14,519 nt of DNA from a virus. The notes beneath the pieces are model-generated. The model did no database searches. It was not told the DNA's origin and saw only the letters and a list, made by a program, of their open reading frames with translations. Below, in pieces: positions 3,087 to 14,270 of this stretch; the stretch's first letter is position 1, and every line of letters begins with the position of its first letter. Position numbers and translations under genes: made by a program. The stretch lies in UHGV virus genome UHGV-0212075; one strand, given 5' to 3'.

Positions 3087-4703
3087 TTACGGCATACTCA
3101 TCAGCAGATCTTCTTCTCCGTGCCCGGCAGCTCCACCACCGGAAACCGCACTGGCAGCATGCTGTGCCATAAAGCGATCAAAAAGTGTTTCCTGTGACGG
3201 CTGCGATGCCGTCGGCGCGGCTGCCAGCAACGTTTTCGCCTGCGCCACTGTCATTCCCGGTTGTTCTGCCAGTGCCTGTGCAAGTTGATCGCGACCTTTC
3301 GCCTCCGGCAGCGCCATAATCTGATCGCCGACACTTGCAGAACCGGCAACCGGTGCCGCCGCCAGTAACGTTTTTGCCTGGTCAACGGTCATTCCCGGCT
3401 GTTCAGCCAGCGCCTGCGCGAGTTGTTCACGCCCTTTAGCTTCCGGCAACGCCATAATCTGATCGCCTGTGCCTGCAGCACTGGCAGCAGGGGCTGCTGC
3501 CAGAAACGCTTTCGCCTGCTCCACCGTCATCCCCGGTTGACCTGCCAGCATCTGTGCCAGTTGCTCACGCCCCTTTGCTTCCGGCAGCGCCATAATCTGA
3601 TCACCCGTGCTGTCAGTACCGGCAACCGGCGCAGCTGCCAGCAACGTTTTCGCCTGCTCAACCGTCATTCCAGGCTGACCTGCCAGCATTTGCGCCAGTT
3701 GCTCGCGCCCTTTCGCCTCCTGACAATTCAGGATCCCCATCACGCGCTGATTTTCCTGGGCCACCGCTTCAGCAACGGTGAGATTTTTAACAGTCATTGC
3801 ATTCTCCTTCGTAACAGAGTCATTCAGTGCAGAAACCATTACATCAACGGCATCTGCAGCATTAATCAGTTGATCAGCCAGGCCTGTATCAATGCCTGCC
3901 TGACCGTCATAAACGGCAGCCTCGGTATTCATCACCACCTCTGAACTCAGCCCCGTATAAAGTGCCACCTTGTCGACAAACATCCGGCGGGCCTCATCAA
4001 TACGGCGCTGAAAATCCGCACGCACACCTGCCGGCAATGCCTGAATACTGTTGCCGTCAACCTTGTGCTGCCCGGAGTAAATCAGCGTGATATCCACCCC
4101 TTCCTGTGCCAGTTGTTTCTCGTAACTGGTGTGCGCCATCATCACACCAATCGAACCAATTTTTGCCGTCTGCGTGACCAGCCGACGCGTACAGGCTGCC
4201 GCCAGCAACATGGCGGCTGAACAGGCCATATCATTACACAGCGCCCACACGGGCTTCTGTTCCCGCAGGCGGTAAATCATGTCAGCACAGTCAAACGCCC
4301 CGGCAGCCTGACCGCCCGGGCTGTCGATATCCAGCAAAATGCCGCGCACATCCGGGTCATTCACCGCCATCTGAAGACGGGCTGTCAGGCCGTCATAGCC
4401 TGTCATGCCGGAGTAAGGGCGCAGGGTACCCAGTTTATGCACCAGCGTGCCGCTCACCGGCAGAATGGCGATGCCATTCTTCACCTGGTAACTCTTTACC
4501 GGGCGCTGACCGCCCGCCATATAGTCAGTCACAGCCAGTTGCATACCATCAGCATCAAGCTGAACAGCCTGCTGAGGAACGGCAAGGCTGCCGGCCCCCA
4601 TCTCTTTACCCAGCGCGCAAAAGAAAACCCGCGCATAGGCGGGCTCCAGTAAAAGCGGTTCATTAAATGCCATGGCGGCAATATGTGATAAATTACGACG
4701 CAT
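3087..4703 (-). CDS. C: prohead protease / scaffold, lambda gpC-like (ClpP/S49-type peptidase with C-terminal Nu3-like scaffold region)
   Basis: 538 aa; ATG at 4703 overlaps the B stop by 11 nt. N-terminus ...HIAAMAFNEPLLLEPAYARVFFCAL and core ...YSGMTGY...DSPGG...KPVWALCNDMACSA...LVTQTAKIGSIGVMM...LIYSGQHKVDGN match lambda C. The C-terminal region holds four tandem ~46-aa units related to the single MGILNCEEAHGRE... segment of lambda C/Nu3. Confidence 0.9.
   Translation of the reverse strand: MRRNLSHIAAMAFNEPLLLEPAYARVFFCALGKEMGAGSLAVPQQAVQLDADGMQLAVTDYMAGGQRPVKSYQVKNGIAILPVSGTLVHKLGTLRPYSGMTGYDGLTARLQMAVNDPDVRGILLDIDSPGGQAAGAFDCADMIYRLREQKPVWALCNDMACSAAMLLAAACTRRLVTQTAKIGSIGVMMAHTSYEKQLAQEGVDITLIYSGQHKVDGNSIQALPAGVRADFQRRIDEARRMFVDKVALYTGLSSEVVMNTEAAVYDGQAGIDTGLADQLINAADAVDVMVSALNDSVTKENAMTVKNLTVAEAVAQENQRVMGILNCQEAKGREQLAQMLAGQPGMTVEQAKTLLAAAPVAGTDSTGDQIMALPEAKGREQLAQMLAGQPGMTVEQAKAFLAAAPAASAAGTGDQIMALPEAKGREQLAQALAEQPGMTVDQAKTLLAAAPVAGSASVGDQIMALPEAKGRDQLAQALAEQPGMTVAQAKTLLAAAPTASQPSQETLFDRFMAQHAASAVSGGGAAGHGEEDLLMSMP
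3175..3726 (-). repeat. in-frame tandem repeat, period 138 bp (46 aa), ~4 copies, in the 3' part of the C gene
   Basis: The string gccataatct recurs at plus 3313, 3451 and 3589 (spacing exactly 138), with a degenerate copy near 3175. Protein units ALPEAKGREQLAQ(M/A)LA(G/E)QPGMTV(E/D/A)QAK(T/A)(L/F)LAAAP... repeat four times. Confidence 0.85.
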
Positions 4704-8390: not shown

Positions 8391-8910
8391 CAATCCACCC
8401 GCCTACGTTCTCACCAGCTTTAGCTGCAACGTTGGAGGCTTTTGCGATTTCAGTTTTCACCACATCAAGGTGTGGTGGTGAAATATCCGGATATTTACGC
8501 TGTAATGTCAGCGGCACACGTACAAGTATCCCCGAAATCTCCTGTGCCACACGTTGCAGAATGAAGGTAAACAATTCCGTTTCCAGTACCAGCCCTTCTT
8601 CGCGGGCATTTTTCAGTTCCTGTGCATCAGCCTGTGCTTTTGTGAGTCGGTAGCGTTCATAGTCAATGGTGCCGGGTTGTAAATCTGATTCCGCAGCCGC
8701 ACGCAAATCCTCGGTCTCTTTACGGAGTTTTTCGTTTTCAATATCGGCTTCGCGCTGCGCATACCACTGAATTGCCACGGCGGTATCAAATACAGATTCA
8801 ACCCCCTTACTACCACCAGAGACACAAGAGAGCCCCTGAGACTGCCAGCGTTCAATCGTTCGTGGATCCACGTTGAAAATTTCCGCGAGCTTCTTTTTAT
8901 TAACCTTCAT
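8362..8910 (-). CDS. nu1: terminase small subunit, lambda gpNu1-like
   Basis: Start at ATG 8910 ([27 protein letters not shown]...). Strong similarity to lambda Nu1 (MEVNKKQLADIF..RTIQNWQEQGMP...AERDAEIENEKLRREVEELR...[28 protein letters not shown]). The winged-HTH N-terminus sits directly downstream of cosB. Confidence 0.9.
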
Positions 8911-9086
8911 AAAACATTTCCATATCAAATGCAGGGTCCGACATGGAAGTGCTCAAAAACGTCTTTTTCGGGCACTTTCATGTCGGACCTTTTACGGATG
9001 TGATTGATGAAAAAACAATGAGTTATACACGAGAAGTACCGACACGCTTTTTCCCGAAAAATTTTCATAAATAGCGAAAATCCGCG
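8911..9086 (-). other. cosB-like terminase binding region between cosN and the Nu1 start
   Basis: Minus-strand sequence right after the putative cohesive end reads CGCGGATTTTCGCTATTTATGAAAATTTTTCGG..., nearly identical to the first ~30 nt of lambda cosB as recalled (CGCGGGTTTTCGCTATTTATGAAAATTTTCCGG). The cosN-to-Nu1 ATG spacing (188 nt) is close to lambda's 190. Confidence 0.6.
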
Positions 9087-9098
9087 ACGCTCCCGCCC
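9087..9098 (-). other. putative cosN cohesive-end core (12 nt)
   Basis: Minus strand reads GGGCGGGAGCGT at the position homologous to lambda GGGCGGCGACCT. Placement follows from the conserved flanks; exact nick positions cannot be determined from sequence alone. Confidence 0.5.
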
Positions 9099-9361
9099 CG
9101 TGGCAGGCCACCCCACCGGAAGGACCCGCACAAATGAGAGCATTTATCATTAACATTTACAGATAAGATGACGTACATCATTGAAACGCTATTCAACCAT
9201 ATACCGGCAGCATTCGTAGTTGCACTCCGTAACCCTGCGACTAAGGTTGAAAGCATGGCCATCTTTTTGCCACCGGCAAATCTTCAATGGATTTCCCCTG
9301 CCGGTTTTTTATTTCTCACATTACAGCAGCCCCTTAGAGTGAAGGGCTGCTGTAATGCCTG

Positions 9362-9658
9362 TTACTCAGTAACTACCGCGCCTTTCGGTAATTCCATACC
9401 GGCAAATACCGGACAACCAGGATGACGATCATCTTCTGTTGCTTCCAGCATTGACTCACCAAACCACTCCGTCGTGGCGCGACCATCAGCTGCTTTGTAG
9501 TGGAGTAAGTACTGATTTTCGCCACCCGCATACTGAGCGCGAGCTTTAACCTCACCCCATTCATCACTGATGCATACTTCCACCAGTTGTGACAGTTCAA
9601 ACTTAAACGGAACAGCAGCGGCACCAATTACAACCGGTTTGTTTTCTGTTTTTTCCAT
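9362..9658 (-). CDS. hypothetical protein (accessory-island ORF X1, ~99 aa, acidic, no TM segment)
   Basis: ORF with three consecutive ATGs (9664/9661/9658) just downstream of a GGAG at plus 9665-9668 (minus strand); no family recognised. Bounded by a terminator upstream and a strong stem-loop downstream. Confidence 0.5.
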   Translation of the reverse strand: MEKTENKPVVIGAAAVPFKFELSQLVEVCISDEWGEVKARAQYAGGENQYLLHYKAADGRATTEWFGESMLEATEDDRHPGCPVFAGMELPKGAVVTE

Positions 9659-9672
9659 CATCATCTCCAGAT

Positions 9673-9698
9673 ATAAAAAAGCCCCGCATTTGCGGGGC
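9673..9698 (-). terminator. intrinsic terminator (minus strand)
   Basis: Plus 9681-9698 gccccgc-attt-gcggggc is a 7-bp GC stem with a 4-nt loop; on the minus strand it is followed by TTTTTTAT (plus A-tract 9675-9680). Lies between X2 and X1. Confidence 0.65.
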
Positions 9699-9720
9699 TA
9701 CAAACAGGCATCACAGCCAG

Positions 9721-9936
9721 TTAGCTAAGTCCGACAGACATAAAATCATCACTACCTAAACGATGGGAACCATAACGAACTTCATACTCCCCATTCAATT
9801 CAGAGCGTTTAGACTTTGCGCCATCCTCCGTTGCATAAATGCCGACCAGATGCCAGGGTTTGTCACGTACTACAGCCCAACCCAGAACCCATCCCTGATT
9901 ATCAGGATCAGCCTTCAGGTTATTTTCTACAAACAT
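9721..9936 (-). CDS. hypothetical protein (accessory-island ORF X2, 71 aa)
   Basis: ATG at 9936 preceded by AAGGAGAA (MFVENNLKADPDNQGWVLGWAVV...). No family recognised. Confidence 0.5.
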   Translation of the reverse strand: MFVENNLKADPDNQGWVLGWAVVRDKPWHLVGIYATEDGAKSKRSELNGEYEVRYGSHRLGSDDFMSVGLS

Positions 9937-9976
9937 AGTGTTCTCCTTTTGGGTACCCAGAGACATTCTATGTCAT

Positions 9977-10201
9977 TCATGAAATAGGCAACAACGTGGC
10001 CGTTACAATCCCCGCCATATTTGCGTTCAGATCACATTCAACAGAAATTTCTTCATCCGTGGCATCCACTTCATATGTCCGGGAATAACACTCCGTGCAT
10101 TTACCACTGAAGATATCCTTAACCAGAACACGTCCACGCTGCAAAACCCTGAATGGAATCGTTCCGTTAAAGGGCTTTACGGTTACCAGTAATCTCTTCA
10201 T
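9977..10201 (-). CDS. hypothetical protein (accessory-island ORF X3, 74 aa, CxxC-containing)
   Basis: ATG at 10201 preceded by GGAGGGG (MKRLLVTVKPFNGTIPFRVLQRGRVLVKDIFSGKCTECYS...). A longer N-terminal extension from ATG 10255 is possible but lacks an SD. 40-nt gap to X2 suggests co-transcription. Confidence 0.45.
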   Translation of the reverse strand: MKRLLVTVKPFNGTIPFRVLQRGRVLVKDIFSGKCTECYSRTYEVDATDEEISVECDLNANMAGIVTATLLPIS

Positions 10202-10464
10202 ATCCCCTCCGGATAAAAATGCCCCTTGCCGCCCGGGCTGTTGTTCAAAGTTCATCCTGATTCGGCAAGATTCAGAATGTATAAGACAAATTGACACACA
10301 CAGCAGAATTTCATGCTTTCCGGACGCTGGCGCATCCTTCATTTTTCAGCGAAATATTCTGCTCTTACAGGCGATCAGTTCTGCAGACACTGCCGGATGC
10401 CATCAATCAGCGGACAGGCCTGAGGAGCTGCATCAAATAATTGGCGCAGCCGGGACTTTACTTT

Positions 10465-10746
10465 TTATTTACTGGTGTGAGTGCGACATCTGGCTATTTC
10501 ATCCCGGGCTTTACTGTCACCGCGACAGATACAACGCACCGTGTCTCCGGTCAGTGTGGTAATGTAAACCTCATCCTCTTTTTCTACCGGAATACATGGA
10601 GTATTCCCGTCCCGGCAATACTCAATTTTTGCAGCAAGATGAGTGTCACGCGGATAGAACTCCAGGCGATACATATCCCCAAGGACATGCACTTCCTCAA
10701 CCTGGCGACCATCTTCAGTTACCGTAATTTTTTTCAGTGCGTACAT
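10465..10746 (-). CDS. hypothetical protein (accessory-island ORF X4, 93 aa, Cys-rich)
   Basis: ATG at 10746 preceded by GGAGGT (MYALKKITVTEDGRQVEEVHVLGDMYRLEFYPRDTHLAAKIEYCRDGNTPC...). Five Cys including a CxC; the longer track ORF from 10866 would run through a terminator. Confidence 0.5.
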   Translation of the reverse strand: MYALKKITVTEDGRQVEEVHVLGDMYRLEFYPRDTHLAAKIEYCRDGNTPCIPVEKEDEVYITTLTGDTVRCICRGDSKARDEIARCRTHTSK

Positions 10747-10775
10747 ACGTACCTCCGTTCTTTCGTTTTTTGAGC

Positions 10776-10803
10776 AATAAAAAAGGCCGCCGAAGCGACC
10801 TTT
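10776..10803 (-). terminator. intrinsic terminator (minus strand) after ORF X5
   Basis: Minus-strand RNA GGUCGC-UUCG-GCGGCC (6-bp stem with one G-U pair, UUCG tetraloop; plus 10785-10800) followed by UUUUUUAUU. Confidence 0.6.
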
Positions 10804-10825
10804 ACCATTAAGTTCACATCTTCTG

Positions 10826-11032
10826 TCAGGATGTATGGCAATCTCTACAGCACCAGTAACACCCATTTGCTCTTGTGTAGCCCAGATTTTTTGCAGCCCT
10901 CACAGCTGGCTCGCATGAGTTAAACTCACCCAGCTCCTTACGATTGTTTGCGTCAGGAAGTCGAAAACAAGTTTCTGTATGAACTTCGTGATCGTTCTGA
11001 GCATCTTCAAGAGTGTGAACATAGTACTTCAT
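10826..11032 (-). CDS. hypothetical protein (accessory-island ORF X5, 68 aa, six Cys)
   Basis: ATG at 11032 preceded by GGAGAA with a 6-nt spacer (MKYYVHTLEDAQNDHEVHTETCFRLPDANNRKELGEFNSCEPAVRAAKNLGYTRANGCYWCCRDCHTS). Followed by an intrinsic terminator. Confidence 0.55.
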   Translation of the reverse strand: MKYYVHTLEDAQNDHEVHTETCFRLPDANNRKELGEFNSCEPAVRAAKNLGYTRANGCYWCCRDCHTS

Positions 11033-11090
11033 ACGTATTTCTCCAATTGTTGCGTACGCATGGAGAAATTATCACCGGGCACAATCTAAC

Positions 11091-11288
11091 TCATTGATAA
11101 TGATCATTTATTTTAACGCAGCATCTAACAGCGTCGACAATTTCACAGACCTGAGAGGCTGTATCGAAAAGCTGACGCGCTTTATCCAGGCTGACGCATC
11201 CCACCAATAAAAAAGGCACCAGTATCTCTACCAGTGCCCATTTCGCCGCCGTTCGCGGCATTCTGTGCGTCCAGTGTTTTCTGCTCAT
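11091..11288 (-). CDS. putative small lipoprotein at the 3' end of the lysis cassette (possible non-canonical spanin-like component)
   Basis: Start at ATG 11288 (AGGT SD, 5-nt spacer). Basic N-region, hydrophobic WALVEILVPFLLVG, then a lipobox-like LVGC followed by a ~34-aa mature part with three more Cys. Directly follows the endolysin. Confidence 0.5.
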   Translation of the reverse strand: MSRKHWTHRMPRTAAKWALVEILVPFLLVGCVSLDKARQLFDTASQVCEIVDAVRCCVKINDHYQ

Positions 11289-11302
11289 AACACACCTGGT
11301 TA

Positions 11303-11680
11303 TCAGCGTTTCAACTGAAAGTGAGGCCCGTCTTTCAGTGTTTTCCAGTCCCCGCCCCATTCGATGGCAGTCCCCAGCTCTGCAGCAGCCTGCTTAAATG
11401 CCTGCGCGATTTTCTCGTACAGAGGCCAGTCCCATGACACCTGGCTGCCAATGTAGGCCACAACATCCACCGCATCACCGGTCAGGTGGCGGCTGTTCAT
11501 GGTCTGGCTTTTCCCTTCCGCGACCAGCTGTTTCTGGCGATACTTACTGCGCAGGCCTTCCGTAATACCGAAATCAACCTCCGTCAGCTCCAGCGCACGG
11601 CGAACGACAGCAACCAGCTGTGGTTTAACGCCCTCCAGATTCTTTTCGCTGCGACGACTAAATCTGAATTTACCCGACAT
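11303..11680 (-). CDS. endolysin, zinc-dependent cell-wall peptidase (peptidase M15 / L-alanyl-D-glutamate peptidase-like)
   Basis: ~125 aa with SRHLTGDAVD and a downstream DGPHFQ, matching the zinc-ligand motifs of M15 phage endolysins. Sits right after two membrane proteins. Start is ATG 11680 (a GTG at 11686 is the track start). Confidence 0.8.
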   Translation of the reverse strand: MSGKFRFSRRSEKNLEGVKPQLVAVVRRALELTEVDFGITEGLRSKYRQKQLVAEGKSQTMNSRHLTGDAVDVVAYIGSQVSWDWPLYEKIAQAFKQAAAELGTAIEWGGDWKTLKDGPHFQLKR

Positions 11681-11682
11681 AT

Positions 11683-11958
11683 TCACCTCAACAATGGAAA
11701 GATTTTTGTGACGTTCCCGCGTGCGCGTATCACCAGCACGCAGAACAGCAGGTTAAAAAACACTTCCAGCCAGCCCGTTGCTAACGGGCGACCACACAGA
11801 TAGCTGAGGGGCGCAAAGGCATACAGCAGCATCAGCAGCCAGGCCAGCCATGACATCAGCGGTTTATGTCTGGAATCACGGCGACGATAAAAAAAGAGCG
11901 TCAGCACGATAACCGTGCATAACGCCACATTCAGTAATCCGGGAAGGTTACTTAACAT
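11683..11958 (-). CDS. holin-like membrane protein (second small membrane protein of the lysis cassette; holin or antiholin)
   Basis: Start at ATG 11958 (MLSNLPGLLNVALCTVIVLTLFFYRRRDSRHKPLMSWLAWLLMLLYAFAPLSY...). 91 aa with three hydrophobic segments; overlaps the upstream holin 3' end by 11 nt. Confidence 0.6.
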   Translation of the reverse strand: MLSNLPGLLNVALCTVIVLTLFFYRRRDSRHKPLMSWLAWLLMLLYAFAPLSYLCGRPLATGWLEVFFNLLFCVLVIRARGNVTKIFPLLR

Positions 11959-12340
11959 TGCCGCCTCCTCCGCCACGCAGACGGGAGAACAGGCCGGACA
12001 CCAGTGATGCAATATCCTGCTGGTGGATGAATGACAGAATCTTCACCGACACCACTGACACCAGTACTGCACACAGTGCGTCAACAGGTGCACCGTCAAA
12101 CCCTGTATGCTTTACCAGCCAGGATGCCAGAACCTCTGCGCCCAGCACGCCGATAATGAACGACACCAGAAAATGCGCCGCCACACGCCAGGCTGAAAGC
12201 GCCTGCGGCATCGTTGCCACAAATAACGCCCCGGCGAACGCACCAAACACAATCCCGAAATCCGTTCCGGTAAACAGCCCGAATACCGTCGCCCCACCGA
12301 GCGCCGCAGCCGTGCCGGAACCGGACAAGGGTTCAGACAT
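11948..12340 (-). CDS. putative holin (multi-TM small membrane protein, first gene of the lysis cassette)
   Basis: ATG at 12340 preceded by AGGAGAA. 130 aa with Gly/Ala-rich hydrophobic segments (AAALGGATVFGLFTG, FGIVFGAFAGALFVA, FLVSFIIGVLGAEVLASWLV, ALCAVLVSVVSV) and a charged C-terminus. First gene after the leader terminators, immediately upstream of the endolysin. Confidence 0.7.
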   Translation of the reverse strand: MSEPLSGSGTAAALGGATVFGLFTGTDFGIVFGAFAGALFVATMPQALSAWRVAAHFLVSFIIGVLGAEVLASWLVKHTGFDGAPVDALCAVLVSVVSVKILSFIHQQDIASLVSGLFSRLRGGGGGNVK

Positions 12341-12354
12341 ACTTTTTTCTCCTG

Positions 12355-12383
12355 TAAATAAAAAAGGGCCGCCAGCGGCCCGT
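12355..12383 (-). terminator. intrinsic terminator at the end of the late leader (tR'-like)
   Basis: Plus 12366-12381 gggccg-ccag-cggccc (6-bp GC stem); on the minus strand followed by TTTTTTATTT, which runs directly into the holin RBS. Confidence 0.55.
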
Positions 12384-12511
12384 AATAAAACACCCCGTCG
12401 AAGGCATCCACCGATGTCTTTTATGTGATGTATTCAGATTCAATACACGTTGAGTGAAACGCAGATATAAAAAAGGCCCGCCGCAGCGAACCATAAAGAA
12501 ACGAGATTCTG

Positions 12512-12540
12512 AATAAAAAAAACCGCCGGATACGGCGGTT
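12512..12540 (-). terminator. intrinsic terminator within the late leader (upstream member of a tandem pair)
   Basis: Plus 12523-12538 ccgccg-gata-cggcgg with flanking A/T pairs; the minus strand has a TTTTTTTT run immediately 3' of the stem. Confidence 0.55.
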
Positions 12541-12901
12541 GGTCAATGCAAGAAATACATTCTTAATTGTAATAAAACCGAGGTGTCGGGTGCCTCCCGA
12601 AGTATTCCGTCCTGTATGAATACTGTGATTTCCCGTTAAACCGACTCTTTTAACCACCCTCGCTCTGAGGAACACCCCGGTGGTGTTATTTACAACACCA
12701 GAATGATGCATCACCGACCCTGCCAGGAAATACAAAATCTCCACCAGCAATGCACCATTCTGCTGTCGCAGAAAAATCAGCACTGAGGCTAACCTGGCCT
12801 CAAATCATAGCCAGAGAACAGAATGCTTTTTCAAAACAACCTGCTCCCACGTAATAAAAAATACGCCAGTGCTGCAATACAATAAGGCTTATTTCAAATG
12901 C

Positions 12902-12976
<75 letters not shown>

Positions 12977-12979
12977 ATA

Positions 12980-13055
<76 letters not shown>

Positions 13056-13116
13056 ATTGGTTCCTCAGGAAAAATAAAAATGACCGCGCTTTACATCTCC
13101 CTTGGAACCGCAGGGA

Positions 13117-13144
13117 ATATTAATGAGGACAGATACTTTTTCAA
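13117..13144 (-). promoter_or_regulatory. candidate sigma70 promoter driving the tRNA pair / late leader (possible PR'-equivalent)
   Basis: Minus strand TTGAAA (plus 13139-13144), 16-nt spacer, TAATAT (plus 13117-13122), about 55 nt upstream of the tRNA-Thr 5' end in an AT-rich region. Hexamer match only. Confidence 0.3.
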
Positions 13145-13223
13145 TTAAAAACTGTGTCAATATTCGTAAATATATGTATAAATTTCTATTATTCATGAAA
13201 TACAGAAATAATGATACACACAT

Positions 13224-14270
13224 TTAACGATTATTTTTTATTTCAATTACAGTCTGGTTAAATCTCTCTTCTTCCAGTTCCACACCTATTGCACGCCTTC
13301 CCAGCGATAATGCTGCTTTTATTGTTGACCCCGACCCCATAAAAAAATCAGCGACCAAATCTCCCGGATGGCTGCTGGCGGTAATTATCTGACGCAACAT
13401 ATCCGCCGGTTTCTCACAGGGATGTTTGCCGGGGTAATACTGCACAGGCTTGTGCGTCCAGACATCCGTATACGGAACGACAGCCGATACGGAAAAATAA
13501 CGCCGCAGGGATTTGTACTCATCCAGCAGACTGGCATATTGCCGGTTCAGTTCACTGTATGTGCTGACCAGCTGGTGGTGTGGCTTTTCCAGTTCACCGC
13601 GCTGATGTTTTTCTGCTGCAACACGCGCAAACAACGCCTGTAATTTCAGATAATCGCTTTCGTTCGGCAACTGCCACTGACTGATACCAAACCAGTGCGA
13701 AGCCATGTTTTTCTTTCCGGTGGCTTCCGCTATCTGTTTTGACGTTATTCCCAGTGATTCACGCGCATCACGAAAGTAAGAAATCAGCGGGGCCATGACG
13801 TGCTGTTTTAGTTCACGCCCCTTTGCCGCATAGCCGTCATTTTTGGGCAGGTATGGCCCCTGATAATGTTCTGCAAACAGAATGCGTTCTGTTGCCGGGA
13901 AATACGTCCGCAGGCTTTCCTTGTTGCATCCGTTCCAGCGCCCGGACGGCTTCGCCCAGATAATGTGGTTCAGCACATTAAAGCGTTCACGCATCATGAT
14001 TTCGATATCAGATGCCAGGCGATGACCACAGAACAGGTAAAGACTTCCGGCAGGCTTCAGTACCCGCCAGAATTGCGCCAGACACTGGTCCAGCCATTTC
14101 AGGTAATCATCGTCGCCCTTCCACTGGTTATCCCAGCCCTCGGGCTTCACTTTAAAGTATGGCGGGTCTGTGACTATCAGATCGACAGAGTTTTCCGGTA
14201 AGGTCTGGATAAATTCCAGGCAATCAGCGTTGATTAACTCACAACTGGATATTTTTACAGTATTAATCAT
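13224..14270 (-). CDS. DNA methyltransferase, beta-class amino-methyltransferase (N6-adenine or N4-cytosine), probably an orphan phage enzyme
   Basis: 348 aa; the N-terminal ...SVDLIVTDPPY (catalytic motif IV) precedes the C-terminal ...DLVADFFMGSGST (AdoMet-binding motif I), the beta-class order, with a ~250-aa intervening region. No adjacent restriction endonuclease candidate in the window. Confidence 0.8.
   Translation of the reverse strand: MINTVKISSCELINADCLEFIQTLPENSVDLIVTDPPYFKVKPEGWDNQWKGDDDYLKWLDQCLAQFWRVLKPAGSLYLFCGHRLASDIEIMMRERFNVLNHIIWAKPSGRWNGCNKESLRTYFPATERILFAEHYQGPYLPKNDGYAAKGRELKQHVMAPLISYFRDARESLGITSKQIAEATGKKNMASHWFGISQWQLPNESDYLKLQALFARVAAEKHQRGELEKPHHQLVSTYSELNRQYASLLDEYKSLRRYFSVSAVVPYTDVWTHKPVQYYPGKHPCEKPADMLRQIITASSHPGDLVADFFMGSGSTIKAALSLGRRAIGVELEEERFNQTVIEIKNNR

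Follow-up and report, generated by a model that had tools for sequence, protein, structure and literature searches.

A mosaic island of small accessory genes between endolysin and cos in an Escherichia coli prophage

The 14,519-nucleotide (nt) stretch of virus genome UHGV-0212075 analysed here as a whole (the window) is the late region of an Escherichia coli prophage, with all its genes on the minus strand. We studied its small-gene stretch between the endolysin and the cos site, where a sequence-only reading had noted a small lipoprotein gene and five small open reading frames (ORFs), X5 to X1. This region is an ordinary mosaic accessory island of a late region, whose gene families are already catalogued and are uncharacterised. 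We consider it probable, with moderate confidence, that this 1.9-kb stretch forms the far end of the late (lysis) transcription unit in a phiP27/lambda-type prophage, consisting of the lipoprotein gene and five exchangeable accessory genes. In the mechanism that we propose, the lipoprotein would be the outer-membrane, o-spanin-type part that closes a holin-holin-M15 endolysin cassette, and X5, X4, X3, X2 and X1 would be separate exchangeable morons in the broad sense, each representing a conserved family of its own. Each gene would be gained and lost independently by recombination at short border sequences shared between prophages. During the lytic cycle the island would ride on the antiterminated late transcript, which would read through the terminators after X5 and X2, and in the prophage state the same terminators would confine antitermination-independent transcription to single units.

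All six small ORFs can be taken as real genes because every one of them has a PHROG family match, with E between 1e-23 and 1e-56, and the pairwise ratios of non-synonymous to synonymous substitution rates (dN/dS) against diverged homologues were 0.07-0.38. Each start codon has a GGAG-type Shine-Dalgarno sequence 5-9 nt upstream, E. coli assemblies contain gene calls for exact copies of X5, X4, X3 and X1 (all named 'hypothetical protein'), and one IMG/VR contig (L004) is 100% identical across the whole island. The six ORFs with their sizes and Shine-Dalgarno sites, the two strong terminators and the gap of about 264 bp between X4 and X3 (263 nt as measured) listed in the sequence-only reading were all present, and its statement that none of the ORFs was recognisable also held. 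Pfam and NCBIfam contained no family for any of the six proteins, PADLOC gave no model at E <= 1, a search of PDB sequences returned no recognised function, and all six PHROG families are labelled 'unknown function'. Peptide motifs of X5, X2 and X4 were also looked for in the literature, where nothing of relevance came up.

Gene order and recombination in the island

Comparison with the same locus in related prophages showed that the genes vary as cassettes, as had been anticipated. When the presence or absence of each gene was scored in 54 complete islands, 22 gene combinations were found and the order was nearly fixed. In relatives the usual order is endolysin, then optionally X5, X4 and two tiny membrane ORFs (tm60 and tm44), then the lipoprotein or Rz, then optionally X3, X2 and X1, and finally cos. 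X5 and X4 are found in several relative orders and positions, mostly inside the lysis cassette between endolysin and lipoprotein. Furthermore, a megablast search of 5,426 complete E. coli genomes gave a different prevalence for each gene (Table 1); the X5 query found no match there, which reflects a sensitivity limit (207-nt query, ~86% identity) and is not evidence of absence. Because there are 22 combinations in 54 islands, the positions of X5 and X4 vary and prevalence is gene-specific, the genes can be said to assort independently.

The G+C content of the region 9250-11250 (0.45-0.47) is below that of the lysis genes (0.50-0.56) and the head genes (0.50-0.61). This, together with X2 homologues lying antisense in tail operons, agrees with the earlier proposal of a moron-type hotspot. 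Among the traits by which morons are recognised, presence or absence among close relatives and divergent base composition were both found here, and a terminator was found for X5 and X2. In this regard, the island is like the morons of lambdoid phages (lambda bor and lom; HK97 and HK022, Hendrix and colleagues) in being made of small extra late-region genes that are absent in close relatives, in its G+C content below that of the flanks and in that some genes have a terminator of their own. It also occupies the same place as lambda bor, between the lysis genes and cos; unlike bor, which lies on the opposite strand with its own promoter, the island genes are co-oriented with the late operon and have no established promoter. 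Neither in sequence nor in fold was a relationship to Bor, Lom or Cor detected.

The order lipoprotein, X5, X4, X3 was seen only in the window's own contig, and it would have arisen by recombination because the end of the lipoprotein comes from the X5 border and a remnant of a second lipoprotein follows X4. The last lipoprotein codons in the window (KINDHYQ and the stop codon) are encoded by the conserved left border of the X5 module (TGATCATTATCAATGA), so that the window carries a recombinant lipoprotein allele with a replaced C-terminus (...RCCVKINDHYQ). In addition, the gap between X4 and X3 (263 nt, 10464-10202) opens with the decayed 3' end of a second lipoprotein allele, which reads RQLFDAAPQACPLIDGIRQCLQN followed by a stop codon. 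The remnant was detected by tblastn of the lipoprotein against the identical contig L004, and in blastn the island aligns from its position 1954 onward with a related contig (L002) from position 3668, inside the lipoprotein gene of the latter. Since the gap starts with this remnant, we read it as a recombination scar and not, as had been supposed, as a spacer that separates transcription units.

At its other end the island is bounded by a perfect 17-bp hairpin that has no T-run, is not part of X1 and follows X5 directly in one relative (L143). The block 9270-9362 before cos is 98.5-100% identical in three relatives (L001, L002 and L007) versus 86-95% in the flanks, and the pre-cos block with its hairpin is present in 237 E. 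coli genomes. Some further features were seen at this block. Beside the hairpin there is a plus-strand terminator-like stem (ACCGGCA...TGCCGGT) followed by TTTTTTATTT, a small opposite-strand ORF is annotated there in relatives (L002 5009-5167), and a plus-strand ORF of the window (9168-9425) has the same N-terminus as the L002 ORF; this layout resembles that of lambda bor. Another observation concerns Actinobacillus phage vB_Apl-pPE4, in which positions 20079-20418 have 92% DNA identity to part of the island (15% of the query); its Pasteurellaceae host, recorded as Actinobacillus pleuropneumoniae, is unexpected for this DNA.

Table 1. Features of the window around the studied stretch, with the number of E. 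coli genomes (of 5,426) matching each gene by megablast
Feature	Position	Strand	Genomes	Details
DNA methyltransferase	14270-13224	-
tRNA-Thr(TGT) and tRNA-Gly(TCC)	within 12366-13055			downstream of the methylase
STnc100-like leader	12706-12511			Rfam, sub-threshold (28.6 bits; gathering score 47)
Two terminator-like sites	12492-12475 and 12381-12366			just upstream of first holin
Holin, PF16931	12340-11948	-		Pfam match
Holin, PF05449	11958-11683	-		Pfam match
M15 endolysin	11680-11303	-
Small-gene stretch studied	11288-9362	-		between endolysin and cos
Lipoprotein, 65 residues	11288-11091	-	225	phrog_7528, E = 1e-33; lipobox LLVG-C
Predicted X5 leader hairpin	11037-11069	-		-12.1 kcal/mol, z = -3.0
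X5, 68 residues	11032-10826	-		phrog_4298
Intrinsic terminator after X5	10774-10803	-		stem 10803-10782 and T-run; -16.4 kcal/mol, z = -4.6
X4, 93 residues	10746-10465	-	41	phrog_33497, E = 2e-52
Decayed lipoprotein 3' remnant	10446-10375	-		23 codons and stop; tblastn, blastn and sequence reading
X3, 74 residues	10201-9977	-	37	phrog_2571
X2, 71 residues	9936-9721	-	32	phrog_4280
Intrinsic terminator after X2	9672-9699	-		stem 9699-9680 and T-run; -17.1 kcal/mol, z = -5.1
X1, 100 residues (L33 of phiP27)	9664-9362	-	161	phrog_1935 and phrog_8618
Perfect 17-bp hairpin	9318-9358	-		-29.2 kcal/mol, z = -6.0
cosN of a presumed lambda-like cos	~9096-9085			placed from the lambda sequence

The lipoprotein in the spanin slot

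The lipoprotein, which had been described as a prelude to the island, is the last gene of the lysis cassette and occupies the slot that Rz fills in Shiga toxin (Stx) phages, as cassette types are split between the two genes and the two do not co-occur; it would be an o-spanin-type protein, its phiP27 homologue being already listed as an o-spanin. We tabulated gene order in 157 related loci and took the lipoprotein statistics from the loci retrieved via X3, which are unbiased with respect to the lipoprotein. In these loci all 17 of 17 holA-holB cassettes end with the lipoprotein and all 23 of 23 S/R(Stx) cassettes end with Rz; one more X3-retrieved locus mixes genes of the two cassette types and carries the lipoprotein. 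No locus in the census carries the lipoprotein and Rz together. The supplements of Kongari et al. 2018 (PMC6139136) list for phiP27 a 'separated' spanin pair, with an o-spanin at 20706-20861 and an i-spanin of 64 residues at 20348-20542, and this o-spanin belongs to the same family as the window lipoprotein. Furthermore, the Rz family has been reported in 277 of 279 Stx phages, and the two Stx2e (phiP27-type) phages are treated separately there, as a small cluster whose endolysin is canonical and whose holin is classical (PMC8136144); we infer from the 277/279 figure that these two are the phages without Rz.

The lipoprotein gene starts 15 nt past the endolysin stop codon and is directly followed by the X5 module. 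Its lipobox is followed by V-S, with valine at position +2 and no inner-membrane retention residue, and this is conserved in 48 alleles; its dN/dS is 0.20-0.38. Across alleles the mature protein has 29-34 residues. The common 29-residue allele forms a predicted amphipathic helix (hydrophobic moment, muH, 1.37, exceeded by 0.55% of shuffles) with a net charge of -1 and two conserved cysteines, and the recombinant allele of the window has a muH of 0.62.

As to phiP27 itself (L31-L34), it has the same holin-holin-M15 endolysin cassette as the window, at 98-99% amino acid identity to this Stx2e phage, its lipoprotein is 86% identical, and its L33, the homologue of X1, is 90% identical; it differs in lacking X5, X4, X3 and X2, in its terminase and in the presence of an HNH gene. 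In the original phiP27 annotation (L32) the reading frame of the lipoprotein gene was missed. Of the properties that define an o-spanin, the lipobox and the location were found for the lipoprotein, and a linked i-spanin partner was not: no i-spanin ORF is embedded in, overlaps or flanks the lipoprotein gene in the window. From this and from comparing the i-spanin and lipoprotein sites of phiP27 (L003 3253-3447 and 3578-3766) with the window (11091-11288), the phiP27-type o-spanin appears to be without a partner. It was also seen that the listed phiP27 i-spanin ORF overlaps a 90-residue antisense ORF, which one other locus (L110) shares at 46% identity.

Compared with lambda Rz1 and other o-spanins, the lipoprotein is alike in being a tiny outer-membrane lipoprotein with periplasmic cysteines at the end of a lysis cassette, in the Rz/Rz1 slot. 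It differs in that it is predicted to be helical and amphipathic instead of proline-rich, and in that the window copy has no overlapping, embedded or adjacent i-spanin gene. Two other identities were considered. A u-spanin of the T1 gp11 type was rejected as the lipoprotein has no hydrophobic C-terminal transmembrane segment. The tiny ORFs tm60 (60 residues, C-terminal membrane segment; L002 3219-3401) and tm44 (44 residues, N-terminal membrane segment; L002 3419-3553), which are absent from the window and optional between the endolysin and the spanin-slot gene in both cassette types, were rejected as i-spanins since they also precede Rz and the tail of tm44 past its membrane segment has only ~13 residues.

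The five accessory families

X5, X4 and X3 are indeed Cys-rich in the window, and within the respective families only the cysteines of X5 are kept as a set. The suggestion that the three are small zinc-binding folds is supported for X5, as a probable metal-binding protein, and failed for the other two. In X5, thirteen positions are invariant in 83 of 83 sequences (D14, E16, V17, H18, C22, G35, C40, A43, G57, C58, C61, C65 and H66) and H15 is present in 82 of 83, which gives a total of eight conserved Cys/His candidate metal ligands. X5 is thus very probably a metal-binding protein, and the eight candidate ligands would be enough for two zinc sites or an Fe-S cluster. Its dN/dS is 0.075, and its AlphaFold2 (AF2) model has a predicted local distance difference test (pLDDT) score of 83.8. 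In a scan of one genome per species we found at least 537 X5 homologues, with 47-59% identity over the full length, in Bacteroidota, Alpha- and Gammaproteobacteria, Patescibacteria, Acidobacteriota, Planctomycetota, Bacillota and others; none of the members tested was matched by a Pfam or NCBIfam model. In 26-27 of 80 retained loci, Bacteroidota in the sampled examples, the homologue lies downstream of a TPR protein and a response-regulator-like protein. In loci L158-L237 these are ~550 and ~220 residues long, respectively, and are encoded on the same strand as the X5 homologue. Small proteins that resemble DUF4236, DUF1508/YegP, DUF2188 or TerB by eye often follow the X5 homologue there.

X5 behaves in the comparisons as a self-contained module of leader hairpin, gene and terminator that moves as one piece, because the terminator is kept in six different phage contexts with differing stem sequences, the leader hairpin is predicted in six enterobacterial contexts and the Cys/His positions are invariant. 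In the predicted hairpin, which covers the ribosome-binding site, the sequence UUUCUCC is paired with the Shine-Dalgarno sequence GGAGAAA and the loop GCGUACGCAAC is conserved; covariation support for it is thin, as it comes from six imperfectly aligned sequences. Upstream of the hairpin (within 11037-11140) there is also a conserved TGATCAnnATCAA motif with a Dam site, which in the window additionally encodes the last seven residues of the lipoprotein. One identity, the Ada N-terminal zinc domain (PF02805, Ada_Zn_binding; PDB 1eyf), was tried for X5 and rejected. The two share a beta-hairpin, an x3-spaced ligand pair, a beta strand, a helix and a CxxC motif; X5 has eight conserved ligands, whereas Ada has four, X5 gave no Pfam match at E <= 1 and no match to a PDB profile, and an hhalign comparison with an Ada sequence gave a probability of 0.1%.

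X4 and X3 are best described from their alignments as conserved proteins without conserved metal sites. The 51 X4 homologues come from E. coli, Salmonella, Edwardsiella, Hafnia, Proteus, Xenorhabdus and Providencia, and the dN/dS of X4 is 0.11. No cysteine is conserved among 33 of these homologues, only C74 being partly kept (C or S), and X4 was accordingly rejected as a zinc fold. Matches of the X4 profile to poly-ubiquitin (E down to 9e-11) are sums of weak repeats in which no single stretch passes and were discarded as a tandem-repeat artefact. Prophages of Proteus and Xenorhabdus carry X4 at the stx position, between the antiterminator gene Q and the holin. One Xenorhabdus bovienii locus (L021 3773-4558 and 5001-5255) has a Tad2-like gene (anti-Thoeris family) upstream of its X4 homologue, and ~440 nt with a small ORF on the opposite strand separate the two. 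Through guilt by association, this hints that the Q-holin slot collects counter-defence genes.

X3 always comes directly after the spanin-slot gene, be it lipoprotein or Rz, in the gene-order census. Its homologues in Stx1 and Stx2 phages are 59-72% identical, with a start codon that overlaps the Rz stop by 4 nt, and its dN/dS is 0.10-0.28. Only C35 and C56 are conserved; the second cysteine of the CxxC motif (C38) is S, L or G in other alleles, and with fewer than four conserved Cys/His X3 was rejected as a zinc fold. A longer alternative, a 121-residue ORF from 10342, exists in the window; at the homologous position of relatives RefSeq has a coding sequence of 225 nt (74 residues).

X2 belongs to a gammaproteobacterial prophage family, for which we found 49 homologues, Pseudomonas, Serratia and Vreelandella being among the sources; the motifs GWVLGW and GS(H)RLGSDDF are invariant in these three genera and in E. 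coli. In those prophages of Pseudomonas and Vreelandella that we examined, the gene lies antisense inside tail operons, a classic moron signature, and judged by this position X2 behaves as a moron family. At one X2 locus (L026) the same accessory cluster contains Imm_superinfect and SocA_Panacea genes, and at another (L028) there is a HigB-like toxin gene ~2 kb away. The AF2 model of X2 is excellent (pLDDT 94.3), and no fold relative of it was found in PDB or BFVD. DUF2188, DUF7457 and DUF7336 were rejected for X2, their best E values of 0.004-0.008 among 34 members being far below the Pfam gathering cut-offs; the name DUF2188 is given by the source for one member only.

The core of X1 (residues 19-75, ~57 residues) is a small, widespread domain that stands alone; it has 322 representative clusters at E <= 1e-3 and no Pfam match. 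The one noteworthy match in the PDB sequence and profile searches came from its family profile, which weakly resembles Bacillus subtilis YdhK (DUF1541, PDB 4mdw): E = 0.009 over the entire chain, both repeats being covered and each of them weak. The pattern Y-x-V/I-x-Y...W is shared with both repeats of 4mdw; on the other side, no single repeat is significant against X1, and DUF1541 is itself without established function. When long homologues of the X1 domain were scanned for fusions, a weak Lcl_C domain was found in 2 of 10, which is uninformative. In other phages X1 homologues lie directly after the small terminase gene (as 'L33' in P2-like ESSI2 phages), among small hypothetical genes (Burkholderia phage Bcep176), or, in phiBt-TXDOH, close to a transcriptional regulator, with an HNH gene and the small terminase downstream.

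Transcription, competing explanations and meaning

The terminators after X5 and X2 are strong, since 0 of 200 shuffles folded as well as either of them, and the X2 terminator sequence is identical in L002; X4, X3 and X1 have no downstream terminator of their own. Over 8800-12500, terminator-like sites are enriched about threefold (11 versus 3.6 +/- 1.9 expected). Two further terminator-like sites precede the first holin, and because the lysis genes lie behind them, late transcription would be antiterminated as in lambda and hence would read through the X5 and X2 terminators. The region 12366-13055 probably holds the late promoter, the leader and the terminator targeted by the antiterminator. 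This stretch of tRNA genes, STnc100-like leader and terminators is also where Stx phages carry stx. An Rfam search of 8800-13300 gave only the two tRNAs and sub-threshold matches, among which GcvB and OmrA-B at 9673-9808 are merely a reflection of the X2 terminator.

The sequence-only reading had seen the island as several independent units outside the lysis operon. This is upheld in part, in that X5 has its own terminator, and it fails in part, in that X5 and X4 usually lie in the lysis cassette and X3 follows the spanin-slot gene. Transcription of these units on their own is not backed by the promoter scans either.

Several observations weigh against the accessory-island interpretation that we favour. 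Promoter-like sites are not enriched over 8800-12500 (1 versus 3.9 expected), no consistently placed sigma-70 promoter was found upstream of X5 in eight contexts scanned, and expression in the prophage state, a defining feature of morons, is thus unsupported by these scans. All genes of the island run in the direction of the late operon, translation of X3 is coupled to that of Rz in Stx phages, and some island genes may be lysis or late-function genes instead of passengers. The antiterminator gene lies outside the window, so that we infer read-through from the lambda-type organisation. In addition, the o-spanin label of the lipoprotein is a bioinformatic one only, and the phiP27 i-spanin ORF (64 residues, TTG start) was found only in phiP27 among the 157 loci and not in the window. 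Lastly, structure and profile searches gave no function for any of X5-X1.

An unlikely alternative, in line with the sequence-only reading, is that the island genes are morons in the strict sense, acting in lysogenic conversion, superinfection exclusion or anti-defence from their own promoters in the lysogen. X5 and X3-X2 are indeed bracketed by terminators, the G+C content of the island is low, the antisense X2 homologues must have their own promoter within the tail operons, and the neighbours of X2 homologues in L026 (Imm_superinfect, SocA_Panacea) and L028 (HigB-like toxin) and the Tad2-like gene ~440 nt from the Xenorhabdus X4 homologue fit such roles. A weak promoter-like site with 9 of 12 matches also lies upstream of X5. 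However, promoters are neither enriched nor conserved in position, PADLOC gave no match, and the ribosome-binding site of X5 is sequestered in the predicted hairpin.

Less likely again is that some or all of X5, X4 and X3 are parts of the lysis cassette, acting in lysis timing or as accessories of envelope disruption. Gene position speaks for this, as X5 and X4 lie between endolysin and lipoprotein in relatives, in Proteus and Xenorhabdus prophages X4 closely precedes the holin, and X3 comes directly after the spanin-slot gene in two unrelated cassette types, overlapping the Rz stop in Stx phages. The proteins themselves speak against it, because the three have no transmembrane segment, signal peptide or lipobox, each of them is missing from many otherwise identical cassettes, and many phyla carry X5 homologues on the chromosome, away from lysis genes. 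A role of X1 as a DNA-packaging or cos-associated accessory protein is very improbable: in lambdoid relatives X1 is invariably the final gene ahead of cos/Nu1 and the ESSI2 homologue directly follows the small terminase gene, yet in Burkholderia phages the homologues are found in early or regulatory regions, X1 is missing from many phages that have the same Nu1/terminase, and lambda itself is not known to carry it.

Two more far-reaching ideas, (a) for X5 and (b) for the lipoprotein, can be set beside the accessory-island interpretation, and we regard it as rather doubtful that even one of them is true. The first is that X5, with two metal sites, may be the phage-carried copy of a very widespread and un-modelled bacterial mini-protein; the hairpin would gate its translation, and it would act as a regulator or a counter-defence factor. 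The second is that the lipoprotein lyses the outer membrane without an i-spanin, in which case its mature form of 29-34 residues may be an outer-membrane disruptor.

Outside the island, the genes that follow cos are Nu1, the large terminase and then head genes. There, a 538-residue ORF (4703-3087), which from its position right after a portal-like gene we read as a gpC-like head protease/scaffold, contains a tandem repeat at 3213-3720 (138 bp or 46 residues per unit, 3.7 copies, 80% identity) that encodes four copies of ALPEAKGREQLAQxLAxQPGMTVxQAKxxLAAAP.

As a textbook mosaic accessory region, the island leaves the view of lambdoid late regions unchanged, and the by-products of most value are the X5 family and the lipoprotein that takes the place of Rz/Rz1 without a partner. 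The X5 family is widespread and constrained and has no Pfam or NCBIfam model, and it therefore deserves one. Furthermore, the gene-order census provides natural presence/absence variants of X5, X4, X3, X2 and X1 for comparative phenotyping. The phiP27-type lysis cassette, in which the lipoprotein stands in place of Rz/Rz1 and no i-spanin is conserved, occurs in hundreds of E. coli genomes and in Stx2e phages, and spanin-less or partner-less disruption of the outer membrane is an open question that can be tested directly in E. coli with this cassette. If the lipoprotein does act without an i-spanin, it would be a third kind of outer-membrane lysis factor, beside the spanins and the cationic-peptide disruptin of phage phiKT.

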